64,000 nt of DNA from a virus (lineage: Duplodnaviria; Caudoviricetes), in the IMG/VR virus record IMGVR_UViG_3300037067_007515, positions 5,202-69,201 of that record; one strand, written 5' to 3'. The position numbers and the translations under genes were made by a program. Of this stretch, positions 4,932 through 24,529 are shown one piece after another. Each line of letters begins with the position of its first letter. The stretch's first letter is position 1. The notes beneath the pieces are model-generated. The model was given only the letters and a program-made list of their open reading frames with translations. It did not search any database and was not told the origin of the DNA.

Positions 4932-6997
4932 ATGAGCACCCCCGCGAGATATAGCTGGACTCCGTTTGAGACCTGGCCCGATGCGGTATCCATTCCGGAA
5001 GCGGCACCCTGCATCTGCCAGACGACGTATGGGGCTCCGCCGTACCACACGACAGGGATCAGGGCTTGGAGCCAATTGATCGAGTGCAGCGAGACACCTG
5101 CTACTTCCATCCTTTCGCGGAGGCCCCCTGCGTAGTTGTAACTCCCAACTGATCCGTAGGCTGTACCGTATCTGAGCGTTACAGTCCGATCTGCTCCCAC
5201 CTTCCCCTTCGCGGTCGCGATCGTCATATACAGGTACGCCGAGCAGAGTACGCCCTTGACGTTAGTCATGCCGGGCGGTAGGTGCGCAGCCAAGGCGGTG
5301 TTCTGCACGGAACCTGTGAGGTTGGTGGTCTCTGCGGCCGCCGTAGAGGTGTAGATGATCGAGTCTGCCGCGAAGTAGTCCGCGGCATCCCTCCAAATGA
5401 GATGCCCGCCATAGATCATGTCCGCCAGGATCGGCGCGGTGGGGATGTCGTGGATGATCTTCCCCGCGGCGTCGCGCGCGAGCAGGCCCTCAGCGGGCGA
5501 GATGCCGATGTAGCGGCCGTAGTCGTCGCCGATGCCGATGTTGGCGTTGTGGAGCCTGATCCCGTAGCGGTTGATGCGGACGCTCTGGTACTTGTTCGTC
5601 ACCTCCGACGTGTCGTACCAGGGGACGGCGTTGGTGTAGTGGGTGGCAGAGGTGTCCTCGACGGAGGGCTGATAGAGGAAATCGCAGAGGAGACTGTTGC
5701 AGGCGTAGCCGCTGACCAGGCCGCCGATGTAGAGGTAGTTCCCCGCAAAGGCGAAGGCGGCGCATGACCCGGCCGCTGCCGTATCAGTCTGCGCGACGCC
5801 GTCAACGTACATGCTGACGGCGTCGTTTCCCAGGTCCCAGACGACCTTGATGTGCTGCCAGACCTGGAGGGCGGCGTTGGCGGTGAATGCCGATGTACTG
5901 TACACGTACCTGTAGTTGCTGCCGTCAAGCGTTGCCCGCACCACCCACTTGTCGTTCGTAGCATGGTAAGAGAGACTGATCTGTCCCGAGGCGCCACTCC
6001 CGCCGAGACGCCAGACGTATTTGTCGCCCGTGCTGTCGTAGGAGAACAACGGGCGGACCCACAGATCAATGGTGCCTTTCGTTGCAGGGGCGAGAGGGTA
6101 CCGCGCGCTGCCAACTGGCCGACTTGTCGGAGTGAACGGCGCCAGGAATGCAGCGTCCGACACCATGACTGCCCCGGCGTAGGCGTAGTCTGTGGCGGCC
6201 TCGTTGAGGTCCGGATAGATCAGAACCGCGTTCGTGTTGCCGGTGTTGACGGAGGCCGCGCGGAACCTGACAACAGCGAAGTCCCCGTAGAAGTCCACCC
6301 GATCGTCGGTGGCACCATTCCCGGCCGTGTAGGTCGAATCAGTCCACTTGATGTCGATGGAGCCCCGTACGGCCGAGGCGGAGAAGTCATAGAGGGCAAC
6401 ACGGGTCAGATCGGCAGCCGCGCTAGCGTTGCCTTTGCAGACTATCGCTCTCACAAGCGGGGTTGCGGTGGTAACGGCCGCGTCCTGACGAATGTAGGCT
6501 CCGCTCGTCGAGGCGCAGATGAGCTTCGTCAGCGGATGCCCTGCGAACACCTTTGCGCTCGCCTCTGCGGTGCAGTTGACCAGTGTCCACGCGGTCGTCG
6601 TAAGGTCCTCGGGATCGGTGACCAGGTTCGGCGTCGCGCCGAAGCAACCGATCGTGCCGCGCCCCGCGAACTTGGCGAGCGCGTTGTCGTACTCCGTGCC
6701 GACCTCGTCGTAGAGGTGCCCGGGCTCGTAGGTGATCTCCTTCGCGCTGGGCTTGCGGCCGAGAGAGGAGACGCAGTCCGGCTGCGAGAGGTCGAAGAGC
6801 TCGGAGGCGGCGGGGATCGGGTCGAGCCCTCGCAACACGCTGTTGCCGAGCGTCACGACTTCGTTGTGGGCTACCAGCGCGTCGATGGCGGAGAAGATCC
6901 GCGAGAACTGGGGACCGATCACCCGCCCCGTTACCTCGATGTCCTGGAAGCGTCCGAAGACGCCGTCGCTTTCCTGGCTCGTCACGCGCGTCGGCAT
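4928..6997 (-). CDS. Tail fibre / receptor-binding protein with a LamG (concanavalin-like) domain
   Basis: Start MPTRVTSQ overlaps the upstream stop; LamG-like GTIDLWVRP...WQHIKVVWD...MYVDGV...LYIGG; homologue at 50832-52937. Confidence 0.75.
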   Translation of the reverse strand: MPTRVTSQESDGVFGRFQDIEVTGRVIGPQFSRIFSAIDALVAHNEVVTLGNSVLRGLDPIPAASELFDLSQPDCVSSLGRKPSAKEITYEPGHLYDEVGTEYDNALAKFAGRGTIGCFGATPNLVTDPEDLTTTAWTLVNCTAEASAKVFAGHPLTKLICASTSGAYIRQDAAVTTATPLVRAIVCKGNASAAADLTRVALYDFSASAVRGSIDIKWTDSTYTAGNGATDDRVDFYGDFAVVRFRAASVNTGNTNAVLIYPDLNEAATDYAYAGAVMVSDAAFLAPFTPTSRPVGSARYPLAPATKGTIDLWVRPLFSYDSTGDKYVWRLGGSGASGQISLSYHATNDKWVVRATLDGSNYRYVYSTSAFTANAALQVWQHIKVVWDLGNDAVSMYVDGVAQTDTAAAGSCAAFAFAGNYLYIGGLVSGYACNSLLCDFLYQPSVEDTSATHYTNAVPWYDTSEVTNKYQSVRINRYGIRLHNANIGIGDDYGRYIGISPAEGLLARDAAGKIIHDIPTAPILADMIYGGHLIWRDAADYFAADSIIYTSTAAAETTNLTGSVQNTALAAHLPPGMTNVKGVLCSAYLYMTIATAKGKVGADRTVTLRYGTAYGSVGSYNYAGGLRERMEVAGVSLHSINWLQALIPVVWYGGAPYVVWQMQGAASGMDTASGQVSNGVQLYLAGVLI

Positions 6998-9900
6998 CAG
7001 TCCTCCCTGTCCTCCGGCGGCCCTCCGATGAGCCACCACGCATCGCCCTCGGTGAAGGCGCGGATTATCCGCTGCACGGGCACCGCTCCTCCGAATCCCA
7101 GGAGCCGGAGAGCCGATGGAGCCGCATTGATCGCCGCTTTCAGAAGGCCTTCGGTGTCGCCCTCCTGCGCCTCCTTCACGATCTTCGCTCCCCTTTGGAT
7201 GGTCTCGGCGATGGGGGCCTTCAGCGTGCTTCCGTAGAGGGTCGATCCGTAGGCCGGCTTTCCCGCCACCGTCGAAACGAGGACATCCCCGACGAAAGGG
7301 GACGGGGCAAGGAACTGCGATACGATATCCTCCGCGATCTCCTTCTCGTCCTTGGGCAGGCGTTTACGGTCGATGGCGCCCATGATGATCCCGGTTATCG
7401 CGAAGGCCCCTCCGAGACGCACGGCCCACATGACCTTTTTCAGGGCCGCGAGCTCCCGGTTCTTCATTGCCGTGGGAAGATCGTGCCAGAGCATGTTGTA
7501 CATCTGGTTTAGCTGGTTCCCGAACAGCACGAGCCACTTTCCGGTCGGGCTCTTCTGAATGGACGTGAGGTCCTTCGTCTTGCCCTGGGGCTGCGTCCGG
7601 AGCGTGGCGTCCTTTGCGGCAGCGGTTGCGGCGGCTTCCTTGGTGGCCGCATCGCCCTCGGTCGTGGCGTAGACGTGGTCGTACACCCCTTTCCATCCGA
7701 TCAGGGCGGTGCCGAGATCGAACTGCTCGAGGGCCCACACGCCGAGCATGTTCGCGCGGTCCGCGAATCGCTTGGTCTTGTTCCACTGGCGGAGGTGCAT
7801 CTCCTCGAACTCGGGGTGCGCGACACGGTCCGCTATCTGAGGATCGTGAGATGTCACGAAGTCGTAGAGCTTCCGGCTACCGAAAAGCCACTGCGCCTGC
7901 GCGGAGTAGAGCCTGCCCGCGTTCGCGTACGGGAGGTAGAGCCACTTGGCGAACGTCGGCCAGTTCCTGGCGTAGCTGGTGAGATTCCAGGCGATCCCGC
8001 TCACCGTGACGTTCCCGCGAATCCGCTCGGATAGCTTGATGACTGGGTCCCACTCGTGGGAGTGCTTCGGGTTGGCTACGTCTGCGATGTACTGCTTGAC
8101 AATCCTGGCCATGTCCTCCCCGTGAGCCCGTACGATCTCCCTGAGTACCGTGGGGCGGGTGTAGACGTAGTTCATGTTCTCCACAACCTCCTGGTAGGCC
8201 AGGAGGTGCTCGTGCTTCTCGATCGCGTCGAGCGCTATCGCGAAAGCATTCAGGCTGATCTTCTTCGTGCTCTTCACTCGGCTGATCGAGCTTCCCTTGT
8301 TCACCCTACCTCTTCTTATTCCGGACCGGCCCGCGATGTCGTCGAGGATCTGCTCCTCGTGCTTCTCATAGAGCGCACCCTGGACTACGGTTGGGAAGTA
8401 CTTCTTCACCTCTTCCGTGTCCGAGTTGAGGTACTCAACGCAGAAGTCCAGGAAGCGATCCTTGTCCTTGCCCTCGAAGAGGGACATGAGGAAGTCGCCC
8501 ATCTGTTTCTGCTTCGGGGATAGCGAGCCAATGAGGATCGCCGCGCTCCTGTCGTTGATGCCGGTCTCGCCCATGAGGTGGCGCTTCGTGTCCTCGTTCT
8601 GCATGTAGATGTACACCGCGAGTGCTTGGTTCTTGTTGTAGACGTCCTCCCCTACCTTCACGAGGCGGAAGAAGTCGCGGGGTTTCAGCCCGAGCTCCTT
8701 CATCTTGGCCGGGATCTGCATCTTCCGCCGCAGGACGTTCACAACCTTCTCGTCCTCTGCGGCGTTCACGGCGCCTACCAAGAGTCGGGAGTTCGGTCCG
8801 TTCGGCTGGCCTCCATCAAGGATCTCCGCCAATCGGTTCGGGCGGGTGTTGATGAGGTCAAGGAGTGCGAGCTTTCCGGTCTCCACGGCTGTCGCGTACG
8901 ACTCGCTTCCGGTGCCGGTGGGCAGCGTCTTCTTCGGCTTCACGCTCGATAGCACCGGCAGGACGTCGTTCCAGAGGGCTTCCTTCTGGCGCATCCTCTC
9001 GTACTTCTTGCGGCCGAGAGCCTGGCGCCCCGCGGTCCGGAGGTCGTTTACCTCCTTCTGGTAGGCCTCGAGCTCCTCCACGGTCATGTCGCGCACGAGG
9101 CGCTGGTCGATGATCCTCTGCGCCTCCGCGGGTAGAGCCTTGCCGGGGTTCGCGTTCTTCCATGCCTGGAGCTTGTCGCGGAGTTGCTGGTGGGCGGTGA
9201 TGTCCTTCACCACGAGGCGGTCCTGCATCGCGCGGACTTCCCGGGCCTTGGCGACGGTCATGCCCTTCCCTGGCTTGCGCATGATCGACTTGATGAGGCG
9301 GTCGGCGTGCGCCTTTGTCTGCACGGCCTCCCGGTAGTCCTTCATGCGCTGCTTCTGTGCCGCGAGGGTAGCGGCTGCCTTCTCCTTCGTCGTTGCGAGC
9401 TTCGCCGCGGCCTTGTCGCGTTCCTCCCGGCGCGCCGCTATGACCGCTTTCTTCCCTTCGCGCTCGGCCTGGGCCAGGGCCGTCTCCGCCTGCTTGACCG
9501 TGGCCTCCTGGGCGGCCTGTTCCTCGGCGATCTGGGCGAGGAGGTCACGGGTCGTGGCCTTGGCGGTGATCTGCTCCGCTCCCGCACGCTCGGCGATCTC
9601 CTTCGCCTTCATGGTGGCGACGTCGGCGCGGAGCTGCTCTCGGAGGGTGCCGAGCTCCTGGCGGGAGGCGAGCTTCTCTATCTCGCCTATCTTCTTGGTG
9701 AGGAGCGCGTTCTGTCGGCGGAGCTCGCGGTTGGCTTCCTTCGCCTGCTCTATCGCCGCGGCGTCGGGGTCCGTCTCCTGCTCGCGGGCGATCTGGTCGG
9801 CCGCGGCCTCGTCTCCCAGGACCTGCGCGATGACGGCGCGGTACTTCGTGGGGTTGTCGCGGAGCTGCGCGAGGAGCTTGGCGCGGTGGGCATCGGAGAT

Positions 9901-12900
9901 CCCCTTGGGAGCCTTGTCGACGGCGGCCTTGAAGAGGTTGTGCACGTCCATCGTCGGGAGCTTGGGCTGGTCGCCCTCGGCCTCCCAGAGCTCGAGGAGG
10001 AGAGCATCGATCCCCTCGGGTGTCTCGATGCTTGCGAGGAACCGGGCGTTCTCGCGCGCGCGGCTCGGGGCTGCGGTCTGCGCGGTCTCCCACTCCTTGC
10101 GGATCTCCTCCTCGGGCTTTGGCTCGAGGCTCATGGCCTGCTCGAAGGCGACGTACTCCTCGGGGTCTGAGAAGGTTCGCGCTGACTCGTAGGCGGACTC
10201 CTGGTCCTCCTGCGTGTTGAAGAGGGTCTGCCCCCGCATGACGCTCTCGCGCATCTCGGGGGTGATGGGGAGGGAGTGGACGGTTGCCGCGTCGAGCGAG
10301 GTATCGCCTACCGCGGCTCCCCACTTCTTCCCGTACTTGTTGGCGAAGTCGACGAGCATCTTGTCGTAGAAGCCCTTCATGCCCTCGCCGCCCACCTTCA
10401 GATCGAGGCCCTCGAACGCCCCGCCTCCGCGCTCTACGATGCGCTGGGCCATCTCCTTTCCCACGATGTCCGATAGTTGGTTCTCGGGTATGTCCTCTTT
10501 CTCCAGAACGACGGTGCCTTCCTCCGTCCTGGCCTGCAAGGCCCAGGCGCCATCTTCTTGTTTGCCCGCGTCGAGGCGCGCTATCTGCTTGCTGAGGTCG
10601 TACCGCGCCGCCTGCTGCTCTCCCGTGGTCCACGCTACGGAGTCGAAGCCGTTCTCTGCCGCCCACCGGAGCATCCGCTTGAAGGCGAGCTCCGGCCAGG
10701 TCTTCGAGAAGGGAGCCGAAGGTACACGGGCACTCCGAAACTTGTCGTCAACAAAGGCCTGCGCTTTAGCTATGGCTTCCTCTTCCGATGGGCCGTAGAG
10801 CGCCTCAAAGGTCACGTGTTTACCCGATTCATCTATAGGCCAATACCATCCCGGCGGGAGATTCGATCCGACTTTGCTTTCTATTCCCGCGACCCTTGGA
10901 GGCGTGTCTGTGCTGTACCCCTTCTCCCTACCCGCTTGGTGCCAGTCGCTCTGGATCTCCTCCACGAAGAGCACGCGCTTGCCCTCGGCGTCGGTGCGCT
11001 CGTCGAAGCGCATGTGCACGAGCACGTTCTCTTCACCCCAGTGGGGGCTCGAATAGCTTACGGGGCGAGCCTCCCATTTAGCGCTAGCGGCTATGGTCTC
11101 CAGCGCGTTCGCAATGGCCCGTTCTTGGGTGGCTCCTGCGTTGCCGACGAGAGAACCGTCAGCCCTTACGACGGCCCACGGACGTCCTTCTTTCGCCTGA
11201 TAGGAATCGGGCGACAGTTTCTTCGTCGACATGCCTTCGGGAAGGGTAGTAACGGCAGATGTTTTTCTGGCGCCAAGTTCCGGGACGGTGATTAGTAGCT
11301 CGCGATAGTTCTCGCCGCCCGGGAGCACGTACCCCTCGAACTTGGTCTCCCCGGCCTCGAGGCCCATGCCGGGCTTGCCCTTCTCTACCTCCACGAGGGT
11401 GACGGCGTTCTCGGCAAGGTACTGCTGGACTTCGGCTGGGGTGAGCTTGCGATCCTCCGCGAGGAACTCGTCAAGCCCAGTCCACTTCAACTCATCCGGC
11501 TTCACCCCGGCGTTCGCGAGCATGGAACGGAGGGCCGAAGCCTGCATCGGCCCCTTCATCTTCTCCTCTACGGTTCGCGCCGATTTGAGGTAGAATGCAT
11601 CGCGGTCGCCGACGTTGAACAGGGTGTCGGTCTCCGCTTCTACGGAAGCCTCTGCGCCTTGCGTGGTCTGGGCGCCAAGCACGGAGTCGAACACCTTCCG
11701 CGTCTCCTCCGGGATCAGGTCCGCGTACTGCGTGCGGGCCCCGCGGAGGAGCTCGGCGAGCTCGCCCATGAGCGGCCGCATCTCCGTGTGTTCGGTCTCG
11801 CCAGTCTGGTAGAAGCGGATCATCGCCTCCGAGAAGCGCTCCTCTGCCTGCACCCCGGTGCCGAAGGTAGCCTGCACCTTGGCGCTCTCCTCCTCCGAGA
11901 GGTGGCGGCCGAAGACGTGGACGAACTCGTGCACAAGCGCCTTGAAGTCCGTCTGCTCCACGGCGTGGATGATCGCGCGCCCATCCTCGAGGAACTGCAC
12001 GGCGGCATTCGCTCCCGGCTGCTGCGCGACCGTAGCCTCTGCCTGCTCGCGGGATGCGAACACCCCCGGCGCGAAGGTCTGCGCGACGTAGTCGGCGGTG
12101 CTCTTGCCCTCGCGCTTGGCGCGGAAGTCCACCACGAGCCCCGCGGCCGTGGTCTCGCGCTCGGTGAACTGCGGTAGGTTCGCGCGGATAGCCTCGCGGA
12201 TGTCGGCGCCGAAGGGAGCGGCCGGCACCTGGGGAGCGGTCGGGAGAGTCTGCTCCTGCGAGCGTACGCCGTAGCGCTGCTGCGCCGCGACCACCTCGTC
12301 CTTCATCTCGGCGAGGTCGAGGATCTCGTTGACCTGGTCCGCGGAGATCTCCGGGGAGCTGTCGATTGCCGCTATCCTTGCGTCGAGCGCGGTCTGGACG
12401 GTGCTCGCGTGCTCCTCGAGCTTCGCAAGGGGAGCGGAGAGGTCGGGAGCTACAGCGGCCTCCGTGTCGGCCTCCTCCTGAGCGCGGAGGATGTCCTGGA
12501 TCTCCGTCTGCGAAGCCGCGATCTTGTCGCGGATCGTCTGTACCTCTGACACCTTGGGGGCGCCCGTCACGGACTCCTGCGTTATTCCCGGGGCCACGGC
12601 CTGGGCCGAGCGCTGGGCGATGTTGCTCGTTACCGTCGCCGCAACCGGGAGGGCCCCGGTCAGCATCATGGCGGGGAGGAACTGCTCGGTCATCGCGGCC
12701 AGTCGGTCGCTTAATACGGTTTCCCCCAGAACCTCCTTGTTGACCCACGCCTGCATCTCCGGTGGAAGCGAACTGGCCGGGAGGCCGAGAACCTTATCGT
12801 GCATCTCCTTGCCGAGTTCGGTACCGAGCCACGTCGTTACTTCCTGCGCCACCTCCTGGCCCATGTTCCCGGCGACACTCCCCGCGTACTTCGCCGCGAG

Positions 12901-13956
12901 CTGGAGCGCCTTGTTCTTGAGGAGGGGGCCGACGATGGCCTTGCGGGTGAGCGTAGAGAGGGCATCCCGAGCCACCTTGTCGGCTCCGGGGAACATGGCG
13001 ACAAACGTCGCCCATCCCGCCCACTCCGTGAGTTGGTTGATGGTCCCCACGGCCTGCGCGATCGGGAGAGCGATCTCCCGCGGTACCCCGGCCTCGCGCA
13101 TCTCCATGTAGGATCCGCCGGCCTCCTGCTCCCCCATCGACTTCCCGCCGCGCATGATGGAATAGGCGGTTTCGAGTTTCCGGACGATCTCCCCCGGCTG
13201 TTCGACGTACTTGTCGCCGGAGAGGAACCAGGGGACCATCATTTCCGCGCCCTCGCGCGCGAGGTTGACCACCCGCTCCGCCGCCCCCTTGAGACTCGTG
13301 TCCGCGCCCTCGCCGTACGCGGAGGCACCGGCCATGCGCTCGAACTGCTGCCCCGCAAGCCCCGCGCTTCCCACAAGCGCCGCGCGTCCCTTCTCCTCGA
13401 GCCACCCCAGGACGGTCTCGGGGTACGCCGGCGCGACGTCCTCGAGGCCCGGGAGCTGCGCCTGAAGCTTCTTGTACTCGGCGAGGTCTTCTTCCGTCTC
13501 CCCTGAGCGGAGCATGCGGGCGCCGATGATGTTCATACGTGTCGTTATGCGCTGGGCGGTCCACTCGGCGGGCATGGCCTGGTTGATGCGCTTCGCCTGC
13601 GGGTCCGACGAGTCTGCAAGGGCCCGCGCCTTCTGGAGGGCCTCGCTCATGGGCATCTTCATCGTCTGATTCATCGCCAGGGCCGTCCACATGAGGTCTC
13701 GGTTGTACGTGGGGTTGTCGCTCTTCGCTATCCTGAGCTGGAGGGCCGCCGGGATGGTGTTGTCCCATGTCGGTAGCTCGTCGGCCTCCGGAACGTACCA
13801 CGACCCGGAAGTCACCGCGGGCGTCGCGGTCTTGGGTTGCTGCTGGGGCTGGATGTCCGACAGGTCGAGCCCGGTATCGTCCTCGGGCGACGGCTCATCC
13901 TGTCCTACCTGAGCCGGGGCGGTAACCAAGTCGCTGAGGTCGAACTCGTCACCCAT
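6997..13956 (-). CDS. Giant internal virion (ejected) polyvalent protein, 2319 aa, with a zincin HExxH domain and a central variable domain
   Basis: Size and position after the nozzle and internal proteins; HEFVH at 11917-11931; central domain with VLFVEEIQSDWHQ. Confidence 0.8.
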   Translation of the reverse strand: MGDEFDLSDLVTAPAQVGQDEPSPEDDTGLDLSDIQPQQQPKTATPAVTSGSWYVPEADELPTWDNTIPAALQLRIAKSDNPTYNRDLMWTALAMNQTMKMPMSEALQKARALADSSDPQAKRINQAMPAEWTAQRITTRMNIIGARMLRSGETEEDLAEYKKLQAQLPGLEDVAPAYPETVLGWLEEKGRAALVGSAGLAGQQFERMAGASAYGEGADTSLKGAAERVVNLAREGAEMMVPWFLSGDKYVEQPGEIVRKLETAYSIMRGGKSMGEQEAGGSYMEMREAGVPREIALPIAQAVGTINQLTEWAGWATFVAMFPGADKVARDALSTLTRKAIVGPLLKNKALQLAAKYAGSVAGNMGQEVAQEVTTWLGTELGKEMHDKVLGLPASSLPPEMQAWVNKEVLGETVLSDRLAAMTEQFLPAMMLTGALPVAATVTSNIAQRSAQAVAPGITQESVTGAPKVSEVQTIRDKIAASQTEIQDILRAQEEADTEAAVAPDLSAPLAKLEEHASTVQTALDARIAAIDSSPEISADQVNEILDLAEMKDEVVAAQQRYGVRSQEQTLPTAPQVPAAPFGADIREAIRANLPQFTERETTAAGLVVDFRAKREGKSTADYVAQTFAPGVFASREQAEATVAQQPGANAAVQFLEDGRAIIHAVEQTDFKALVHEFVHVFGRHLSEEESAKVQATFGTGVQAEERFSEAMIRFYQTGETEHTEMRPLMGELAELLRGARTQYADLIPEETRKVFDSVLGAQTTQGAEASVEAETDTLFNVGDRDAFYLKSARTVEEKMKGPMQASALRSMLANAGVKPDELKWTGLDEFLAEDRKLTPAEVQQYLAENAVTLVEVEKGKPGMGLEAGETKFEGYVLPGGENYRELLITVPELGARKTSAVTTLPEGMSTKKLSPDSYQAKEGRPWAVVRADGSLVGNAGATQERAIANALETIAASAKWEARPVSYSSPHWGEENVLVHMRFDERTDAEGKRVLFVEEIQSDWHQAGREKGYSTDTPPRVAGIESKVGSNLPPGWYWPIDESGKHVTFEALYGPSEEEAIAKAQAFVDDKFRSARVPSAPFSKTWPELAFKRMLRWAAENGFDSVAWTTGEQQAARYDLSKQIARLDAGKQEDGAWALQARTEEGTVVLEKEDIPENQLSDIVGKEMAQRIVERGGGAFEGLDLKVGGEGMKGFYDKMLVDFANKYGKKWGAAVGDTSLDAATVHSLPITPEMRESVMRGQTLFNTQEDQESAYESARTFSDPEEYVAFEQAMSLEPKPEEEIRKEWETAQTAAPSRARENARFLASIETPEGIDALLLELWEAEGDQPKLPTMDVHNLFKAAVDKAPKGISDAHRAKLLAQLRDNPTKYRAVIAQVLGDEAAADQIAREQETDPDAAAIEQAKEANRELRRQNALLTKKIGEIEKLASRQELGTLREQLRADVATMKAKEIAERAGAEQITAKATTRDLLAQIAEEQAAQEATVKQAETALAQAEREGKKAVIAARREERDKAAAKLATTKEKAAATLAAQKQRMKDYREAVQTKAHADRLIKSIMRKPGKGMTVAKAREVRAMQDRLVVKDITAHQQLRDKLQAWKNANPGKALPAEAQRIIDQRLVRDMTVEELEAYQKEVNDLRTAGRQALGRKKYERMRQKEALWNDVLPVLSSVKPKKTLPTGTGSESYATAVETGKLALLDLINTRPNRLAEILDGGQPNGPNSRLLVGAVNAAEDEKVVNVLRRKMQIPAKMKELGLKPRDFFRLVKVGEDVYNKNQALAVYIYMQNEDTKRHLMGETGINDRSAAILIGSLSPKQKQMGDFLMSLFEGKDKDRFLDFCVEYLNSDTEEVKKYFPTVVQGALYEKHEEQILDDIAGRSGIRRGRVNKGSSISRVKSTKKISLNAFAIALDAIEKHEHLLAYQEVVENMNYVYTRPTVLREIVRAHGEDMARIVKQYIADVANPKHSHEWDPVIKLSERIRGNVTVSGIAWNLTSYARNWPTFAKWLYLPYANAGRLYSAQAQWLFGSRKLYDFVTSHDPQIADRVAHPEFEEMHLRQWNKTKRFADRANMLGVWALEQFDLGTALIGWKGVYDHVYATTEGDAATKEAAATAAAKDATLRTQPQGKTKDLTSIQKSPTGKWLVLFGNQLNQMYNMLWHDLPTAMKNRELAALKKVMWAVRLGGAFAITGIIMGAIDRKRLPKDEKEIAEDIVSQFLAPSPFVGDVLVSTVAGKPAYGSTLYGSTLKAPIAETIQRGAKIVKEAQEGDTEGLLKAAINAAPSALRLLGFGGAVPVQRIIRAFTEGDAWWLIGGPPEDRED

Positions 13957-13962: not shown

Positions 13963-16677
13963 CTACCACTGGAACACCTGTATCCACTCGCCGGCCTGCG
14001 GCTTTGCGGGGTCGGTCTGCATCTTGAACACCTGCGGCCGGATGACGCCGTCGACGCTCGGGTACCTGACCACGTAGAGCTCCTGGCCGGCTTGTGGCCT
14101 GATCGCTCCCGTGTCGGGGTTGTACTTCACGGGCGTGAGAGCGTAGAGGGTCTCGCCGGCATACCTGCCGGTTGTGACCGATGCCGTGTAGACCGCTGTC
14201 TTGACCCGTGTTCCGAGCCAGTTCTTGTCCACGATACCGGCCTTCGAGAGCACGTCGTTGTCAAGCTGGCGGACGCTCGGCGCCGTCTCTCCCTCGAAGC
14301 GGGCCTGTAGATCGGGTGGAAGCCTTGCGACCTCGCGGAGCGCCTCCTGGGCCGCGGCCATCTCGAATACGGAGCCGGAGGCGCCGGCACGGGAGGCGAA
14401 GCCCTCGGCATAGGCGGTCGGGCCTCCAAAGGTCTGCGCCATGATGGTCTGGAGAGACTCCTGCGCGGCCTTTCCCTCCTTAGCCTTCTTGTCCTCGAGG
14501 AAGCGGTCGCGCTCCGCACGCCACTCGGCGGGCTTGTCGCTCTTCTGGAAGAAGGCCTCCATCGCATCGACTCCGGAGATCATCTCGCGCATGATCGCCC
14601 GGGTCTCCTCGACGTTCTTGCCCTCCATCGCGGGGCCGTACGTGTCCCTGATGGAGTCGATGATCGCCTTCTTGTCGGCGTCGCCGTTGTACGGGTCTAT
14701 CTTCGCCGTCCAGATCGACCCATCTGATCCCGAGAGACCGCCCTTGACGACGAGGTCCTTGATTTCTTCGCGCTTGGTATCGCTGGTCTTGTGCGGGTCG
14801 TAGACTATCTCGAAAGCCTTCGCCTGTCCCTCGGCCGTGGTCTTGCCGAAAGAGCTGTTTGCCAGGAAGTTCCCGTGCAGGCTGTACCGGAGCGCAAGGA
14901 GGCCGTTGGCCTGGTCGGGGGTGATCTTCCCGGAGTCGCGCGCGGCCTCGATCTCGCCCTCCTCCACTGCGAGGTAGGGATCCTTGGCGTCGCCTTCCAT
15001 GGCGCCGTAGAGCTCCGACTCGATCCCGGAGGCGTACATCTTCGTTTGGTCCAGGGGCTTCCCTCCCCTGTTAATGTACTCCTGCTCCAGACTGTGCCGG
15101 AGCGCCAGGACTTCCTTGTAGCCTCCCGGCGACAACTGGCCCGCGGCAAGCGATAGCCGTAGCTCCTCGTCGCTAACCAGCACGTAGGGATCCTGCGGTG
15201 CCTTGTCGGCCATGTTCTTGTAGAGTCTGCCGGTGATCGCCGCGGCGAAAGCCGTCGTAGCGTCCGCTGGCTTCTCCCCTCGCGCGACGTAGTCGTTGTG
15301 AAGCTGCTGCCGGCGGGCAAGGAGCGAGTCGTGCTGCTCTGGACTGATTCTGCCCTCGGCAAGAGCCTGCTCGATCGTGCCGTCTGCGACCGCGACAAAG
15401 GGATCGACCGGCGAGCTCCCGCCGATGGCTCCGTAGAGGCTGGCGTTGATGCCCGCGGCGGCGATGGCCCGGGGGTCCGTGCCCTTCGGCGTCGTACCGA
15501 TGGCCTCCTGGAGATCTCCCTGTAGCGCCTTCGCGGCTTCCATCGAAAGGGTTGCGACGTTGCCCTCGGGGGGCGCGGCCATGGCGATGATCTTCGCCTC
15601 GTCGAACGGTGGCGGCCCCTGCATGCCCCCGCGCTTCCACCTCGCGAGGTCGGCTCGCATGCTGAGATCGTTGCGCTGCTGCGTGTTGATGACGACCTGG
15701 TCCGGGGCGATGTTGATGTACTTGTCGTAACGCTCACGGTAGGTCCTGACGTCTGCCTGGTGCGCGCGATCCACGGATACCTCGAACTTGGCCAGCACGT
15801 CCCGCGTGAGCTTCGTCGGGTCCATGGCGAGGATCTCGCGGAAGGCATCCCACTGCTTGGCGCCCTCTTCCTCCTTGATGCGGTCGATCTCCTTGACGCG
15901 GTAGTTCACTTCCTTCGCTACCACCTCTCGGGCTGCGATGCGCTTGGCGGGATCCCCATCCCAAAACGGCGTGTTGGCGTCGATCCAGGCGTCAGCGGCC
16001 TGCATGTTCCACCCCGCGGCCTTCGCCTGCTCCACCGCGGTACCTACCGCCCATGAGGACTCTATCTCCCGCTTCATCTTCTCCGAGTAGGCGGCGGCAT
16101 CGTCGGCCCGGCGGAGGCCGGTGTTGACGTCGGAGCGTAGCAGCGTGTCGACCTGCTGCATCCTCTGCTCCGGCGTGAAGTCTGTCTTCTCTGCCCAGTA
16201 GGTGATGTTCTGGTCGCTGTCGGCGATGAGCCGGTGCGTGGTCTCCGTGCTCCAGAGCTCCCAGACCTGGTCATAGTGCTGGACGGATCGCTGCTCGAGG
16301 GCCGCGAGGAGCTGCTCCTGTGCGGCCTTGTTCCGGAAGTTCTGGCGGATGAAGTCGCGCTGCGTACTGATGAGCGCGGCGTGGTCTGCGGTAAGGGACG
16401 CCTCGTCGATCTGCCCGAGGGTGAGCTGCGCTGAGGCTCCGGATTCTCCGGAGACTGACTTTGCTGAGCTCTCCGTATCTGCGGGCTTCGCCCAGCGCTT
16501 GTCCTTGATGGAGCGGTTGTAGGTGGAGAAGGCTCGGTCCATGGCGGAGAGGCCGGAGGAATACTGAGAGACGCGGTCGGCTTCGTTGAGGCGAGAGGAG
16601 AACGCGGTCAGGGACCGACTGAGGCTGTCGAGGCTCTCGGCCCACATTCCGGCTACGTTGACGTCGTAGTTACCCAT
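13963..16677 (-). CDS. Internal virion protein, 904 aa, with three ~70-aa repeats
   Basis: Position in the ejected-protein cluster; N-terminal ~235 aa nearly identical to 60944-63172. Confidence 0.7.
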   Translation of the reverse strand: MGNYDVNVAGMWAESLDSLSRSLTAFSSRLNEADRVSQYSSGLSAMDRAFSTYNRSIKDKRWAKPADTESSAKSVSGESGASAQLTLGQIDEASLTADHAALISTQRDFIRQNFRNKAAQEQLLAALEQRSVQHYDQVWELWSTETTHRLIADSDQNITYWAEKTDFTPEQRMQQVDTLLRSDVNTGLRRADDAAAYSEKMKREIESSWAVGTAVEQAKAAGWNMQAADAWIDANTPFWDGDPAKRIAAREVVAKEVNYRVKEIDRIKEEEGAKQWDAFREILAMDPTKLTRDVLAKFEVSVDRAHQADVRTYRERYDKYINIAPDQVVINTQQRNDLSMRADLARWKRGGMQGPPPFDEAKIIAMAAPPEGNVATLSMEAAKALQGDLQEAIGTTPKGTDPRAIAAAGINASLYGAIGGSSPVDPFVAVADGTIEQALAEGRISPEQHDSLLARRQQLHNDYVARGEKPADATTAFAAAITGRLYKNMADKAPQDPYVLVSDEELRLSLAAGQLSPGGYKEVLALRHSLEQEYINRGGKPLDQTKMYASGIESELYGAMEGDAKDPYLAVEEGEIEAARDSGKITPDQANGLLALRYSLHGNFLANSSFGKTTAEGQAKAFEIVYDPHKTSDTKREEIKDLVVKGGLSGSDGSIWTAKIDPYNGDADKKAIIDSIRDTYGPAMEGKNVEETRAIMREMISGVDAMEAFFQKSDKPAEWRAERDRFLEDKKAKEGKAAQESLQTIMAQTFGGPTAYAEGFASRAGASGSVFEMAAAQEALREVARLPPDLQARFEGETAPSVRQLDNDVLSKAGIVDKNWLGTRVKTAVYTASVTTGRYAGETLYALTPVKYNPDTGAIRPQAGQELYVVRYPSVDGVIRPQVFKMQTDPAKPQAGEWIQVFQW

Positions 16678-16685
16678 GCTCTCCC

Positions 16686-17969
16686 CTACACCACGGCCTG
16701 CGAAGCCGGAAGCGTGTCGATGAATCCGCTCGCGGCAGTGAGGATGCTCGACACCGCGCCCACTCCGGCGGCTGCCACGATAGAGCTCCTGTTCGTGACG
16801 AGGTTCGTCTTGTGCCGCGCGGCATCCGCGAGACTACGCCGGTACTGCTGCGTGAGGATGTCGGCCTGATCCTGGATGTCCTCCTTCGCCTGGTCGGTCT
16901 GGAGGATTGCGGTGTTCAGGTCGCGATCAAGTTGCTCGGCCGCGAGGCGCGCTTCGTTCTTGATCCGCGCCGCCTCCTGCTTGTACTGGGTATCCTCGGT
17001 CTTCTCTTGGTAGGCGAGTTCGGCGGTCTCCTGCTTCGCCTGACGCTCGACGTCTGCGGTGCTCGCCTCCAGGTTCTCGTAGGTCTGCCTGAACGCGAGC
17101 TCGGTGTCCTCGCGCGTGCGTTCGAGTTCTTTGTCGGCGAGAGCGTTTGCGGCCATGACGTCTTCAACGCTCTGCTCGGCTTCGGTTCTCGCGGAACCTA
17201 CTTCCTGGGCATAGCCCATGGCCGTAGCCTGGACGGTGTAACGAGCTTGGCGCTCGGCCTCCTGTTGCTCGGCCCGTGCTGCTTTCTCTACTTGGCGGAG
17301 CGCGAGAAGCGGGGATCCAGTTGCGCGGACGGCCGTCGCCGCGAGCCCCGCCCTGGCCTCCCCGGCTTTGAGCGAGGCCTCTTCCTTTGGGACTCCTACC
17401 TCGTACTCGGCCTGTTGGCCGGCGCGGTTGAGGGTGAGGATCGCCTCGTCCTTGGTCTGGGCCAGGAACTGATCGCGCTTGGCCGTGATCTGGGAGACCT
17501 TACGGGCGGACTCGACGTCGCCCTCTTCCGCTCTCTTCGTGAGCTGCCCGAGACTCTGGTCCTTGGACTCGAGGGCTTGCTTTTTGGCGAGCTCGATCTT
17601 CTCGCGTTCGGCCGCCCGGTTCTCTTCTACCGCGGCCTTCCGCCGGTCGTACTCATCCTGGTCGATCTCGTGCTTCTCGAGGAGGTCGGCCAGCTCCTGC
17701 TCGACACGGGAGGTGTAGGCGTCGCTCTCGTCGATGGTGACTTCGAGCTTTTCCGCCGCGATCCTGGTTTTCTCAGCCTCGAGGAGGGCGTCGGCCTGCG
17801 CGATCTCCCTGGTGCGGTCGGTCTCGACGGCCTCGATCTGCTCGTTGAGACCGGCGATGGCGCTGTCGAGGTCTTCGATCATCGCATCGATGTCGTCCTC
17901 GGCCGCGTCCATCTTCATCGCGGCGGCGGTGAGTGCTACGAACATCCCGAGGATCGCCAAGAACCCCAT
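16686..17969 (-). CDS. Internal virion protein, 427 aa, coiled coil with hydrophobic termini
   Basis: Follows the nozzle gene; homologue at 63181-64000. Confidence 0.7.
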   Translation of the reverse strand: MGFLAILGMFVALTAAAMKMDAAEDDIDAMIEDLDSAIAGLNEQIEAVETDRTREIAQADALLEAEKTRIAAEKLEVTIDESDAYTSRVEQELADLLEKHEIDQDEYDRRKAAVEENRAAEREKIELAKKQALESKDQSLGQLTKRAEEGDVESARKVSQITAKRDQFLAQTKDEAILTLNRAGQQAEYEVGVPKEEASLKAGEARAGLAATAVRATGSPLLALRQVEKAARAEQQEAERQARYTVQATAMGYAQEVGSARTEAEQSVEDVMAANALADKELERTREDTELAFRQTYENLEASTADVERQAKQETAELAYQEKTEDTQYKQEAARIKNEARLAAEQLDRDLNTAILQTDQAKEDIQDQADILTQQYRRSLADAARHKTNLVTNRSSIVAAAGVGAVSSILTAASGFIDTLPASQAVV

Positions 17970-19939
17970 TACGTCTCCACCTCGGGGATCAAGGCAAGGA
18001 TCATACTGCGGTAGGGCTCGTCCTGGATGGCCATGACCCAGGTATCGCGGTCACTCGCCCCGCGGAAGGGACACTCGTAGATTCCGCTGACCGACCCCGT
18101 GAAGGGCATCGTTTCAAGCTGCGCAGCCGTCGACACGCGCCCGAGCTTGCAAGGGTAGCTCGTGAGGACCTCGGCGTAGACTTTGGAGATCTGGCGGAGC
18201 CTCATGTCTCCGGGGCCGTACGGCCCTTCGGTGTGGATCCGCATGGTCTTCATAGTGCAGGTGAATCCCGCGCCCACGACAAGATGGTCTCCGACACAGG
18301 CCGCCGGGGTTGTGAGCACGCCCGCCGTTACCGCCGCCGTGTAGACCGCGCTCTCGGTGACGTTCCATATGGTGGCCGTCGTCCCGGTGAATCTATCGAG
18401 GCCGGTCACGGTGGCGCCGGCCGTAGCGACGTTGACCCAGGCGTCGAGCGGGATCGCCGTCATGTCCTCAATGCCGTCCCAGAGCTCCACGCAGTACTGA
18501 GTGCCGCGGAGCGTTATAGTCCAGACGGCATCCCGCGCGGTACCTCCGGTGACGCCCACACTCTGGACGAGGCCCCCTCCCCCGCAGGTGAGCCGATGCC
18601 AGGCCCGCATACCGAGCTTTCTGTCGTAGGCCAGCGCGCACAGCACCCCGTCCGAGCGGACAGCGTAGACCATCGGCCAGGGAATCACCGCAAATGCCGC
18701 TTCGACCACGGTGCCGGTAGACGTGAAGATGTGCTCGGCGTGGTAGCTGAGATCCTCTACCGATTCCTCCGTTGCATCCCCTACGGGGTACTCCCGGAGG
18801 CGCGTCGCGCTCACCTGCCAGAAGAGCATGGCGTCGCCGATCAGACACCCCGAGACCGCGGCGCCGCCGTTGTGGGTGGAGGGCTGGAGTTTTTCGGGTG
18901 TGAGCGCCGTCATGTCGGCAGGGATCGTGTACTCGACGCCGGCCGTCGAGACGAGGAGAAGCGTTCCCGCTATGAGCTCGTTGACGGTCATCGCGGTATC
19001 GCTCGCGAGCGTCAGCTCCATCGCGGAGTCGGCGGTTGTGAGGTCGCGATAGACCGTGACAGTCTCGAGCTCGGGGATGTCCGGATCAGCCCACGAGGCT
19101 ACGGCCTCGAGCTGCTCGACGTCGTAGCGGAGCCGCTCGAAGTAGGTCATGTCGATGGAGCCTGACGCGCACCAATAGTCCCATACCGCAGTTCCATCGG
19201 TGATCGCCGCAGTTGTCCCGGTCGGTCCGCCGGATCCCGCCGAAGTCCCTGCGGTGACGCAGGTATAGAGCTTGCCGGTGTCGTTAGAGACGATATCCCC
19301 GATCTCGTACGCCGTAGAAGCCGTCCAGGCCACGGCCCTAGCCTCGGTGTAGATCCCGACGCGGCTCGCCCAGAGGGTTCCGGGATCGTTCGTCGACCGC
19401 CCGAACCACAGCCTTTGTCCGAAGCCGGCGATACACCCCGGGTAGTCCCCGGTAGCAGAGAACGGTACCACGCCCGTGTTGCCGACGATGACGGCCGCGC
19501 CGATAGTGAACGTGGAGCCGGTCCACGTTACCTTCTGGATAGCGTAGCCTTCGCAGACGATGAAGAGCGTGTTGCCGTCCACGGCGAAGCGAAGGGCTCG
19601 GCACGCGGCCGCGGTCGTGTAGGGGGTCACGAGCTCGAGGGGAGCGCCGAACAATGCACCCGCAGCCGTCCAGAACCGGAGCACGAGCGCGGTGAACTCG
19701 AGCATGTAGCAGGTCCCGCTCGGGAGTCTCCAGCCCTGGAGGCGCCCCAGGACGTTGTTCTTCGTGGTACCGAGGTACTTGGTTCCCGGCCGCGTGATGA
19801 CCCCGCCCTGGGAGAACGGCATCCAGTTTTCGAGGGTGAGGCACCCCTTCTGATAGATCGCGAGGTCCCACCGGGCAGAGAACTTCGGCGTGAGCTCTCC
19901 GGCTGTGAAGTCTGTGATGGGGACAGCGGAGAATGCCAC
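17969..19939 (-). CDS. Tail nozzle (T7 gp12 / P22 gp10-like tubular protein B) with one inserted CBM-like module
   Basis: N-terminal ITDFTAGELTP...NWMPFSQGGVITRPGT is typical of podovirus nozzle proteins. Confidence 0.8.
   Translation of the reverse strand: MAFSAVPITDFTAGELTPKFSARWDLAIYQKGCLTLENWMPFSQGGVITRPGTKYLGTTKNNVLGRLQGWRLPSGTCYMLEFTALVLRFWTAAGALFGAPLELVTPYTTAAACRALRFAVDGNTLFIVCEGYAIQKVTWTGSTFTIGAAVIVGNTGVVPFSATGDYPGCIAGFGQRLWFGRSTNDPGTLWASRVGIYTEARAVAWTASTAYEIGDIVSNDTGKLYTCVTAGTSAGSGGPTGTTAAITDGTAVWDYWCASGSIDMTYFERLRYDVEQLEAVASWADPDIPELETVTVYRDLTTADSAMELTLASDTAMTVNELIAGTLLLVSTAGVEYTIPADMTALTPEKLQPSTHNGGAAVSGCLIGDAMLFWQVSATRLREYPVGDATEESVEDLSYHAEHIFTSTGTVVEAAFAVIPWPMVYAVRSDGVLCALAYDRKLGMRAWHRLTCGGGGLVQSVGVTGGTARDAVWTITLRGTQYCVELWDGIEDMTAIPLDAWVNVATAGATVTGLDRFTGTTATIWNVTESAVYTAAVTAGVLTTPAACVGDHLVVGAGFTCTMKTMRIHTEGPYGPGDMRLRQISKVYAEVLTSYPCKLGRVSTAAQLETMPFTGSVSGIYECPFRGASDRDTWVMAIQDEPYRSMILALIPEVET
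19172..19327 (-). repeat. CBM5/12-like module copy 1 (in the nozzle)
   Basis: WTASTAYEIGDIVSNDTGKLYTCVTAGTSAGSGGPTGTTAAITDGTAVWDYW. Confidence 0.85.
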
Positions 19940-19942
19940 TGC

Positions 19943-20881
19943 CTACACCTGGTCCCAGGGCGTGGGCTCGGTCGGTGACTCCGTGGCCTCCTCCATGGCC
20001 ACGGGGCGCGCGGTGGCGTACCAGGAGCCGAAGGTCTGTTCGGCCTTCTCCGCTCGCTCGGCGTCCCCGGTAACATAGAGGCAGATGTCGGCGACGATCC
20101 GCATGGCGACGGTGGTCTGAAGGAGCTCGTCCCACATGGTGGGGTCGGTCTCTTGGCGGACGTAGAGGAGCACGGAGGGGTCCTGGTTCGTGTAGATCCA
20201 GAGGCCTTCCCTCTTGTACGCGATACCCTGCACATCCTCCGATGCAGCCCCATCGATGGGGACCTTGACTATCCGCAGGCAGTCAATGGGGCGGATCCAT
20301 AGGTAGTCGTAGCTCGTTCGGTTCGCGGGCGGCGTGCCGTAGTAGCACCAGTGCGCGGTGCCGTCAGTGATGTCGGTCGTCGTTCCCGTTGGGCCTCCCG
20401 AGGCCGCGGAGGTGCCGGCGGTGATGCAGCGGTAGACTTTCCCGGTGTCGTTACTGACGACGTCGCCTACCAGGTATGCGGTCAAGGCGACCCAGCACCA
20501 GTTGTTCGCGGTGGTCGAGGCTTCCTTGTAGTCCCATACCACAGTCCCGTCAGTGATGTCGTCCGTGGTGCCCGTAGGGCCTCCGGAGGCCGCGGACGTT
20601 CCCGCCGTGGTGCACTCGTAGGTCTTCGCGGTGTCGTTCGTGCAGCGGTCGCCCACCTCGTAGCGGTGGCTGAGCGTCCACGGCGTGGCCTGATCGTGCC
20701 ACCCGAGCATAGACTGGCGCTTCAAGCACGAGGGCCAGGCCATGAGGCGGAGAACGTCGTCCCGGCAGACAGAGTACGCCGCGATAGCTGCGGCCTGGTT
20801 GCGAGTCGTGTCGGACATGCTGGAGGCGTCGGGCTGGCCGAGCAGGCGCAAGGCTCTGTTTACGATCTCTAGATTCGTCAC
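19943..20881 (-). CDS. Tail adaptor (T7 gp11 / P22 gp4-like tubular protein A) with two inserted CBM-like modules
   Basis: TNLEIVNRALRLLGQ...RDDVLRLMAWP...YVRQETDPTMWDELL adaptor pattern. Confidence 0.8.
   Translation of the reverse strand: MTNLEIVNRALRLLGQPDASSMSDTTRNQAAAIAAYSVCRDDVLRLMAWPSCLKRQSMLGWHDQATPWTLSHRYEVGDRCTNDTAKTYECTTAGTSAASGGPTGTTDDITDGTVVWDYKEASTTANNWCWVALTAYLVGDVVSNDTGKVYRCITAGTSAASGGPTGTTTDITDGTAHWCYYGTPPANRTSYDYLWIRPIDCLRIVKVPIDGAASEDVQGIAYKREGLWIYTNQDPSVLLYVRQETDPTMWDELLQTTVAMRIVADICLYVTGDAERAEKAEQTFGSWYATARPVAMEEATESPTEPTPWDQV
20339..20680 (-). repeat. CBM5/12-like module copies 2 and 3 (tandem, in the adaptor)
   Basis: WTLSHRYEVGDRCTNDTAKTYECTTAGTSAASGGPTGTTDDITDGTVVWDY and WVALTAYLVGDVVSNDTGKVYRCITAGTSAASGGPTGTTTDITDGTAHWCY. 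Confidence 0.85.
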
Positions 20882-20935
20882 CTACGTCCCTTCCTGTGAA
20901 GCAGGGCGGGCCCCGAAGAGCCCGCCCGTCTTGCT

Positions 20936-21223
20936 TCAGGCCCTGGCCCTTGCCCGCGGCTTCTCGGACGGCTCGACCTTCATGGCCGCCGCCCGGGTGT
21001 TCTTCCTGGCCCGCTCTTCCTTACCGAGCTGGTCCTCGAACTGCTTCTCTGCCAGCTTCACCTGGTCCCGGTCCATCTCGGCGAACGGCAGGAAGTGCTT
21101 GAGCAAGCCGTTGCCGCCTTTGACGGCGAAGGCCTTCTCGTCGATGGTGTACAGGGCGTCCTTCTTGTAGAACTTGCAGCCCGTCGAGTCGTAGCAGTCC
21201 CGTACACACTTCGCTTGGATCAC
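20936..21223 (-). CDS. Small hypothetical protein of the head/tail region
   Basis: GTG start with an AGAGGGG SD; position between cement and adaptor genes. Confidence 0.6.
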   Translation of the reverse strand: MIQAKCVRDCYDSTGCKFYKKDALYTIDEKAFAVKGGNGLLKHFLPFAEMDRDQVKLAEKQFEDQLGKEERARKNTRAAAMKVEPSEKPRARARA

Positions 21224-21257
21224 TGTATCACCCCCTCTCTTGAGCTATGTCCCTCGC

Positions 21258-21683: not shown

Positions 21684-21694
21684 GCCTTCCCCCT

Positions 21695-22690: not shown

Positions 22691-22708
22691 GCTACCCTCC
22701 TGTCCGGG

Positions 22709-23536: not shown

Positions 23537-23790
23537 GTCTTTCCTTCCCTCGTGACCAGGGCCGCTATGATGCGCCTGGTCGAATTGCGCTTGATCCTCG
23601 CAAGGATCATTACCGCCGTGTTGTGCCGCGCGATACCTTCGGGGCCCTTGATCTCGTCGAGCAATCCCAGCTCTTCGAGAAGACTGGCCAGCACGATCTG
23701 TCCGTCCTCGGTCTGCGTGAGGTTCTCCCATGCCCGGTCGATACGCGCGGCGCGATCTTCCGGTTTGAGCTCAAGGACGGATTCAAGCAC
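23533..23790 (-). CDS. Bbp19-like small head-region protein
   Basis: LTQTEDGQIVLASLLEELG...EGIARHN pattern upstream of the scaffold gene. Confidence 0.6.
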   Translation of the reverse strand: MLESVLELKPEDRAARIDRAWENLTQTEDGQIVLASLLEELGLLDEIKGPEGIARHNTAVMILARIKRNSTRRIIAALVTREGKT

Positions 23791-24520: not shown

Positions 24521-24529
24521 GTGGGCCTC

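Follow-up and report, generated by a model that had tools for sequence, protein, structure and literature searches.

A 64,000-nucleotide stretch of tailed-phage DNA (Duplodnaviria; Caudoviricetes), called the window here and corresponding to bases 5202-69201 of the 69,201-base IMG/VR virus record IMGVR_UViG_3300037067_007515, encodes two giant proteins, P1 and P2, whose cargo domains are flanked by short peptides containing Leu-Phe. An earlier note on this DNA had read these peptides as either autoproteolytic release sites or recombination joints of injected polyproteins, and the locus raises the question of what the peptides mark and what acts on them. We found that a peptide of the form L-[FY]-x stands systematically at the edges of cargo modules in the family to which P1 and P2 belong, that it accompanies an HExxH domain in the same polypeptide, and that its third residue is specific to the protein that carries it. 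From these comparisons we lean towards the view that L-[FY]-x is the cleavage signal of the zincin-like HExxH domain acting in cis. The two genes, their HExxH domains and the Leu-Phe sites are as follows (P0003 is a relative 70% identical to P2).

6997..13956, minus strand: P1, 2319 residues, allele A of the ejected-core slot; a stop-free frame that comes after tail tubular A and B and two internal-protein genes
52938..60947, minus strand: P2, 2669 residues, allele B of the same slot; a stop-free frame
11674..12180, minus strand: P1 zincin-like domain (residues 593-761), with HEFVH at 11917-11931 and the candidate third ligand E706 at 11839-11841
58467..59051, minus strand: P2 zincin-like domain (residues 633-827), with HEYFH at 58746-58760
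11614..11625, minus strand: P1 junction 1, TLFN (residues 778-781); in relatives, LFH or LFQ takes its place ahead of this module
10216..10227, minus strand: P1 junction 2, TLFN (residues 1244-1247); homologous to the GQ[YTP]LF[H/Q/G] that ends the same module in relatives
58353..58370, minus strand: P2 QEDLFG (residues 860-865), a DLFG-type element preceding the ParB-like module; DLFG is kept in P0003
57630..57647, minus strand: P2 QGDLFG (residues 1101-1106), overlooked by the earlier note; the recurrent DLFG-x-x-ES-x-MV element found after ParB modules
57330..57347, minus strand: P2 SLELFG (residues 1201-1206), a junction; P0003 has LFH at the homologous position, and the block of 70% identity stops exactly there
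56958..56969, minus strand: P2 SLFH (residues 1327-1330), a family-type junction
56061..56072, minus strand: P2 LLFH (residues 1626-1629), the junction linking the cargo to the C-terminal part; the block of 70% identity to P0003 begins exactly at this Leu

The motifs named in the earlier note (HEFVH, HEYFH, the two TLFN, QEDLFG, SLELFG, SLFH and LLFH) all lie exactly where it had placed them. The LF dipeptide is not above chance within the giants themselves (7 occurrences against 5.0 expected in P1, and 10 against 7.2 in P2), and the case for a motif therefore rests on homologues. These were collected in a full HMMER pass with the last 790 residues of P2 as the query, which gave 1868 representatives at E<=1e-3, of which 473 reached E<=1e-30. 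The scaffold match was always C-terminal, in proteins of 1300-3900 amino acids (aa); the minimal members of 1300-1500 aa have no cargo, no HExxH domain and no motif. Across the family, the residue following LF is enriched for His (5.3-fold) and Gln (2.9-fold). LF[HQ] occurred 113 times in the cargo regions (112.7 k residues), as compared with 19.1±5.2 in shuffled sequences, and LY[HQ] occurred 51 times, as compared with 16.5 expected. The permuted controls FL[HQ], [HQ]FL and [HQ]LF were found in the same regions at about the expected level, and LF[HQ] was depleted in the C-terminal scaffold (6 versus 15.8). The sites give the logo [DEN]-P-x-[IVTA]-L-[FY]-[QH]-[PETR]-[ADE].

The excess of LF[HQ] was reproduced in a second set of 42 non-redundant HExxH-bearing open reading frames (ORFs) from IMG/VR (48 versus 14.5±4.3); the control FL[HQ] was raised in this set (33 versus 14.5), which we attribute to the conserved ST-F-L-H-E of the active-site helix. 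At a clustering threshold set above every shuffled score, the flanks of 164 sites formed no fewer than 73 unrelated clusters on the upstream side and no fewer than 75 on the downstream side, and a few repeated modules therefore cannot account for the excess. Chance as the source of the motif is excluded by the shuffles, the replication set and the flank clusters. Raw tripeptide counts are dominated by Ala/Glu-rich words; ranking by Poisson probability placed LFH, LFQ, LYQ or LFK at the top in about ten HExxH-positive proteins and in no HExxH-negative protein.

The motif is located at module edges. It lies 5-25 residues outside the Pfam envelopes of ART-PolyVal, PBECR5 and ParB_N, as exemplified by three members of the family (residue numbers).

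P0092: LFQ 878, ART-PolyVal 901-1030, LFQ 1042; LFQ 476, PBECR5 481-592
P0049: LFQ 1016, ART 1039-1174, LFQ 1201
P0006: LFH 1231, ART 1254-1479, LFH 1488; LFH 1646, ParB_N 1716-1788, LFH 1823

Raw pairwise high-scoring segment pairs of P1 were too long to define module edges, and flank tests and breakpoint statistics were used for that reason. Within cargo regions, 32 of 331 homology breakpoints fell within 3 residues of a motif, as compared with 3.3 expected. The comparison of P2 with P0003 is the clearest instance: the homology blocks cover P2 residues 490-1205, 1324-1635 and 1627-2669, ending at the F of SLELF and starting at the L of LLFH; the LFG at P2 residue 1204 is LFH in P0003; and an additional 657-aa GNAT-like cassette of P0003 sits precisely between LFH 1679 and LFH 2337. 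The motif also precedes modules with unrelated folds, in disordered, acidic and Pro-rich contexts. One short motif is thus found in the family at every module boundary, including the edge of the putative protease itself, and no recurrent motif was detected in the neighbouring virion proteins that were checked. The earlier note had proposed that domain edges are marked by LF[N/H/Q/G]; the systematic marking of edges held among the homologues, and the motif proper proved to be L-[FY]-[QH], with LF[NG] weakly enriched.

The third residue of the motif varies with the protein. Proteins are either of an H type, in which LFH occurs three to five times, or of a Q type; 155 of 201 pairs were of the same type, as compared with 114.4±6.6, and a maximum of 142, in 5000 permutations. 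The last residue of one module family (H, Q, N or G) is set by the protein in which the module resides. The ART-type module ends in N-R-G-T-W...I-L-[FY]-Q in Q-type proteins and in ...I-L-F-H in H-type proteins, and the P1-type module ends in G-Q-x-L-F followed by H, Q, G or, in P1, N. At 29 of 52 non-redundant P1-type loci, the [FY]x of the C-terminal edge recurs in the N-terminal flank of the same module (permuted pairs, 13.1±2.5, with a maximum of 21 in 2000). The edge variants comprise LFQ, LFH, RFS/MFS, RFK/KFK, QFE, FMP and LFA, and S, K and E are among the other third residues. TLFN stands at both edges of the P1 module, and VFN is found where cargo meets scaffold in the nearest relative of P1 (31% identity).

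This agreement was examined at the nucleotide level. The codons of identical junction tripeptides within one gene matched about as often as codon usage predicts (13 versus 11.5 for all nine bases, and 33 versus 29.3 for the Leu codon), the two TLFN sites of P1 use different Leu codons, and in the window no nucleotide identity extends past the motif codons at the junctions. Since the codons are no more alike than codon usage predicts, selection acts on the peptide. The codon comparison also rules out homogenisation of the junctions at the DNA level.

Of 124 full-length members, 70 contain the HExxH domain according to an iterated hidden Markov model seeded on residues 590-770 of P1, and 68 of these keep HExxH itself intact. 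An alignment of 46 diverse domain sequences shows no variation at the H, E and H or at a further E downstream. Among the proteins whose cargo exceeds 600 aa, LF[HQ] was present 112 times in the 65 that are HExxH-positive and was absent from the 8 that are HExxH-negative, where 11.4 were expected (P 1.2e-5); the density of L[FY][HQ] was 1.70 per 1000 residues in proteins with the HExxH domain and 0.43 in those without it. The first motif is often situated 7-60 residues past the end of the domain. In 43 of the 46 domains, a Gln preceded by L-F, L-Y or L-x stands 26-36 residues upstream of HExxH, regardless of the module that precedes it.

The AlphaFold 2 (AF2) model of the P1 domain (predicted local distance difference test, pLDDT, 74.9) consists of two strands followed by helices bearing HExxH and E, an order that fits the zincin-like MPTase layout. 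The weak matches returned by a PDB profile search (E 0.02-0.4) were zincins without exception: Spartan SprT ranked first (E 0.024), ahead of aminopeptidase N and FtsH. The HExxH motifs are where the earlier note had them, and it is these motifs that point to the zincin it had assigned; the fold was not confirmed by fold searches or Pfam, as detailed below. Directly ahead of the active-site helix, the strand frequently has the sequence I-x-L-F-[QH]-x-A-D-x-S-T, copying the protein's own junction tripeptide about 12-15 residues before HExxH (L118, L108, L154, P0038 and P0083). This L-F-[QH] may be a pseudo-substrate or a self-cut site. The counterpart of the strand in P1 is A-I-I-H-A.

The DLFG sites of P2, one of which (QEDLFG) the earlier note had taken for a junction of the same kind, belong to a different recurrent element. 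DLFG was found 10 times in cargo regions, as compared with 1.1±0.9, mostly as one homologous element after ParB modules, and [DE]LFG forms two or three tandem repeats at the extreme N-termini of minimal, HExxH-less members (P0054, P0059, P0064 and P0117). Because of this distribution, DLFG is probably a separate short binding motif. A related pattern, Q-x-[SD]-L-F, occurs at four sites in P2, for which a rough composition estimate gives an expectation of about 0.04.

60720-60734, minus strand: QRSLF, residues 72-76
58356-58370, minus strand: QEDLF, residues 860-864
57633-57647, minus strand: QGDLF, residues 1101-1105
56961-56975, minus strand: QASLF, residues 1325-1329

The modules that these peptides delimit in the two giants are the following.

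10228..11613, minus strand: P1 GNAT-like-fold cargo module, residues 782-1243; the TLFN that comes next is part of the module's last strand
57648..58352, minus strand: P2 ParB-like module, residues 866-1100; ParB_N (PF02195) at E 0.0037, PHROG ParB-like at E 1.3e-4
56073..56957, minus strand: P2 ART-like module, residues 1331-1625; ART-PolyVal at E 3.8e-4

The P1 module (residues 782-1247) has at least 595 relatives in viral contigs. Its AF2 model, built from a 44-sequence alignment (pLDDT 86.5), was used in a structural scan (VIA) in which all 50 best chains were GNAT acetyltransferases, with Z between 7.3 and 10.4 (the latter at a root-mean-square deviation of 3.6 for 146 aligned residues); these structural matches include TacT and AtaT, toxins that acetylate tRNA. 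According to the model, the P1 cassette has a GNAT acetyltransferase fold, and the invariant Q-x-G-R-x-x-G-Y may be its coenzyme A loop. Foldseek returned no match to the model, searches of the module against Pfam and against PDB sequences and profiles returned none, and the ESM Atlas search led to no named cluster. In the model, the opening strand is paired with the closing one (the C-terminal T-L-F with an N-terminal F-Y strand), so that the ends of the cassette would lie side by side, a geometry suited to insertion. The GNAT-fold module is also found at the C-terminus of mid-sized ORFs of 600-830 aa (loci L010, L013, L030, L036 and similar), many of which have P-L-F-A or M-F-A upstream of the module and at its end.

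The P2 ParB-like module is 41% identical to Vibrio and Shewanella phage proteins and scored 17.7 bits for ParB_N, below the gathering cut-off of 26.3. The ART-like module scored 21.7 bits for ART-PolyVal (PF18760), below the cut-off of 31.2, with its N-terminal third alone being matched; it is homologous to residues 1046-1310 of P0092 (E 4e-10), which are bounded by LFQ on either side. Given the scores below cut-off, the identities assigned to these domains in the earlier note are retained as the labels ParB-like and ART-like only. P1 (HExxH and GNAT-fold) and P2 (HExxH, ParB-like and ART-like) each carry at least two unrelated enzymatic or effector domains in a phage context, as is characteristic of polyvalent proteins.

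Outside the cargo, the giants consist of scaffold regions.

12181..13956, minus strand: P1 N-terminal scaffold, residues 1-592; aligned with P2 267-372 over residues 280-385 (E 2e-6)
7000..10215, minus strand: P1 pre-scaffold (residues 1248-1529) and C-terminal scaffold (1530-2319); BLASTP match to P2, phrog_9880
52941..55310, minus strand: P2 C-terminal scaffold, residues 1880-2669; family-wide HMMER match, Bbp10 homology

The C-terminal ~800 aa of P1 and P2 are 24% identical (BLASTP, E 4e-44), with LDGG, QPxG and WxxxF lying inside this region; further similarity was detected over ~100 N-terminal residues (E 2e-6) and in the HExxH region (E 0.004), and the middles are unrelated. The common scaffold and the unrelated middles described in the earlier note are therefore borne out, but not the idea that middles were swapped: by sequence, P1 and P2 are distant family members exchanged as a whole ~9-kb block, not one scaffold with exchanged middles. 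The C-terminal scaffold is homologous to Bbp10 of phage BPP-1 (P2 residues 2343-2577, 26% identity, E 7e-7 by tblastn), to which P1 is linked via P2. No Pfam family matched the P1 N-terminal scaffold, whole-protein Pfam and PHROGs searches of P1 and P2 returned almost nothing, and an IMG/VR search with the P1 C-terminus gave no close relative. The closest relative of P1 in the protein database is the one with 31% identity in the scaffold (P0152), which has a Cys-rich cargo region (residues ~980-1045) where P1 has its GNAT-fold module.

Self-comparison of the contig showed that bases 1-22706 are collinear with 43986-69201 (1-17505 and 38785-64000 in window numbering), with 86-89% nucleotide identity in patches. 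Because both contig ends are collinear, the record represents about 1.5 genome units of ~44-46 kb; the duplication may reflect an assembly that fused two strains, or a genuine tandem. The collinear ends place both giants at the same position, and P1 and P2 are therefore alternative occupants, or alleles, of one slot in two diverged genome copies; the self-similarity rules out two giant genes in one phage. The genes flanking P2 have 86-89% DNA identity to those flanking P1. The exception to collinearity is the replaced ~9-kb block, which runs from residue ~275 of the internal protein beside the giant (904 or 742 aa) through the entire giant gene: the 904- and 742-aa proteins are 89% identical across their first 275 residues and show no identity beyond. 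Fibre-like proteins of 703 aa (window 4928-7039) and 701 aa (50832-52937) are 53% identical overall, both ends being near-identical and the middle diverged, as expected for host-range variation between two copies. Terminase, replication, ParB-like and exonuclease genes are situated between the virion regions of the two copies. The virion genes upstream of P1 are as follows.

13963..27429, minus strand: virion module upstream of P1, recognised by PHROGs and Pfam matches
25726-27429, minus strand: portal (Head-tail_con, E 4e-112)
22709-23731, minus strand: scaffold- or protease-like gene, 340 aa (phrog_458 'protease', E 2.3e-14)
21695-22690, minus strand: major capsid protein (GP7, E 4e-123)
19943-20881, minus strand: tail tubular A (PHROGs/Pfam)
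17969-19939, minus strand: tail tubular B (PHROGs/Pfam)
16686-17969 and 13963-16677, minus strand: two internal proteins without family matches

The order portal, capsid, tail tubular A and B, two internal proteins, giant and fibre-like protein is the T7 / BPP-1 pattern. Judged by homology and position, both giants fill the slot of T7 gp16 and BPP-1 Bbp10 in the podovirus virion module. They probably enter the host together with the DNA, by analogy with phi24B gp47 (described below) and in view of their place in the internal-protein cluster. Gene order and homology thus support the description of the giants as polyvalent proteins that occupy the ejected-core slot and carry an HExxH domain and interchangeable cargo modules. 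A segment of ~110 bases is common to the tail tubular A and B genes and is also repeated within A (window 19176-19293 and 20354-20667), with weak CBM_5_12 matches at this segment in both tail tubular proteins. A short tandem direct repeat lies at window 44296-44515, in the ORF at 43792-44616, its copies being offset by 24 to 168 bases with 88-92% identity.

We propose that P1 and P2 are polyvalent ejection proteins of a BPP-1-like podovirus. Their conserved N-terminal part and ~800-aa C-terminal part would bring the polypeptide into the capsid and take it out again by way of the tail, and the region between them combines a gluzincin-like HExxH...E domain with a string of exchangeable cargo enzymes, each module ending in hydrophobic-L-[F/Y]-x (LFN in P1, LFH or LFG in P2). 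The HExxH domain, if it is an active protease, would recognise and cut the junction peptide within its own polypeptide; the scissile bonds would lie at the junctions, and the string would be cut into free effectors inside the capsid or after ejection. Of the two roles offered by the earlier note, release is favoured because the motif co-occurs with HExxH, because matching variants stand at both edges of a module, and because conservation is at the level of the peptide. Several points weigh against cleavage. The case for it is computational throughout. Zincins usually select the residue after the cut, which is a poor fit to a variable third residue. Foldseek found nothing with the model of the HExxH domain, and no Pfam model, MPTase-PolyVal included, matches the domain; the full structural scan (VIA) gave a best Z of 5.0 to unrelated helical proteins, and neither anthrax lethal factor (Z 4.2) nor PPEP-2 (Z 3.4) stands out in it. 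The H or Q type follows clade, and shared ancestry can therefore explain part of the homogeneity; the contrast set consists of just 8 HExxH-negative long-cargo proteins; and LF[NG], to which the LFN of P1 and the LFG of P2 belong, is enriched only about 1.4-fold family-wide. In addition, L-F lies inside the last beta strand of the GNAT-fold model, and GQPLF / PLFA is kept in the 600-830-aa proteins of other architecture, so that part of the motif is structural. Uncut packaging is described in PMC5512222 for the N4 virion RNA polymerase, another protein with a domain of this kind. These last three points would also suit a motif that is never cut and that serves as a conserved last strand or cap together with a linker signal, for module folding, for packing and unfolding in ejection, or for docking to a virion or host protein. 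Such a role does not explain why the position following F varies with the host protein and not with the module, why HExxH-negative proteins with long cargo lack the motif, or why it precedes modules of unrelated folds in disordered, acidic and Pro-rich contexts, and we consider it unlikely.

The motif could instead be cut by another protease, either the 340-aa protein during head maturation, as its phrog_458 match would allow, or a host protease after ejection, with the HExxH domain being itself an effector; MPTase domains may act on host proteins according to Iyer et al. (PMC5512222). This seems quite improbable, given that the motif tracks the HExxH domain in the same polypeptide and stands at a fixed distance upstream of it, that protein-specific variants would require a co-varying external protease, and that the neighbouring virion proteins have no recurrent motif. 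Recombination joints, that is, short common sequences at which cassettes exchange, would account for homology blocks that break exactly on motifs and for a whole P0003 cassette lying between two LFH. However, the junction codons are at the codon-usage expectation, no identity is found outside the motif codons in the window, the peptide is kept across very diverse phages, and nine bases are too few for homologous exchange; the part of the earlier proposal that concerned joints is very improbable for these reasons. The four Q-x-[SD]-L-F sites of P2, far above expectation, and the [DE]LFG elements, with their excess and their tandem copies at the N-termini of zincin-less members, raise the question of whether these sites and elements are short clamp-like binding motifs through which the injected protein would be anchored to a partner in the host or the virion. 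The bacterial sliding-clamp motif has the consensus QL[SD]LF. We give this possibility very little credence, as most DLFG sites are copies of the one post-ParB element and the family-wide junction logo has no Q at -3. As a general explanation the sliding-clamp motif was rejected, position -3 of the logo being P, G or A and never Q, with only the four P2 sites fitting.

Cleavage by the in-cis HExxH domain would resemble, in its manner of working only, the polyprotein processing of RNA viruses. RNA-virus 3C and 3CL proteases cut polyproteins after Gln at every domain boundary, and the phage system likewise has a short motif that is repeated at each boundary, is present at the putative protease's own edge and is adapted to the lineage. 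It differs in belonging to dsDNA phages, in having a metallo-type rather than a Cys/Ser motif, and in carrying virion cargo rather than a replicase, and cleavage is putative here. P1 and P2 share with the BPP-1 Bbp10 / T7 gp16 slot the C-terminal homology to Bbp10 and the order after the tail tubular and two internal proteins; unlike the minimal, cargo-free members of the Bbp10 family, they hold ~1000-1400 aa of inserted modules and the HExxH domain. The polyvalent proteins described by Iyer, Burroughs, Anand, de Souza and Aravind (2017, J Bacteriol, PMC5512222) were proposed to be packaged, injected and autoproteolytically processed, and P1 and P2 resemble those giants in stringing ART, ParB, GNAT, nuclease and other domains together with an HExxH domain. 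Text searches of the same article found no cleavage site, linker or junction motif, whereas L-[FY]-x is mapped here with its protein-specific variants; a further difference is that no Pfam model, MPTase-PolyVal included, detects the present HExxH domain. The 2811-aa polyvalent protein gp47 of phi24B was found in virions by mass spectrometry (bioRxiv 10.64898/2026.04.10.717836). Compared by description, it is likewise a giant podovirus polyvalent protein with a metallopeptidase domain and a proposed ejection protein, but it has an LPD and MuF-C domain set unlike that of P1 and P2, and no junction motif or processing has been reported for it.

Zincin-like processing of polyvalent proteins has been proposed since 2017, and no sites are named in the literature that was searched. 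The motif gives exact predicted cut sites: after residues ~781 and ~1247 of P1, and at ~1206, 1330 and 1629 of P2. It also provides a rule by which thousands of giant phage proteins may be parsed into modules, many of which may be unknown anti-defence or takeover enzymes. The protein-specific variants would constitute a natural data set on the co-evolution of protease and substrate, and the motif suggests a route for loading foreign cargo into phage particles. More tentatively, and with slightly less confidence than doubt, we suggest that dsDNA phages run a self-processing effector polyprotein with its own metalloprotease and a co-evolved junction tripeptide (L-F-Q, L-F-H, L-F-N, R-F-S, K-F-K, Q-F-E and others). 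If this is true, any cassette placed between two junctions would be delivered to the host and released there, in a natural plug-and-play system that shows its cut sites in the sequence.

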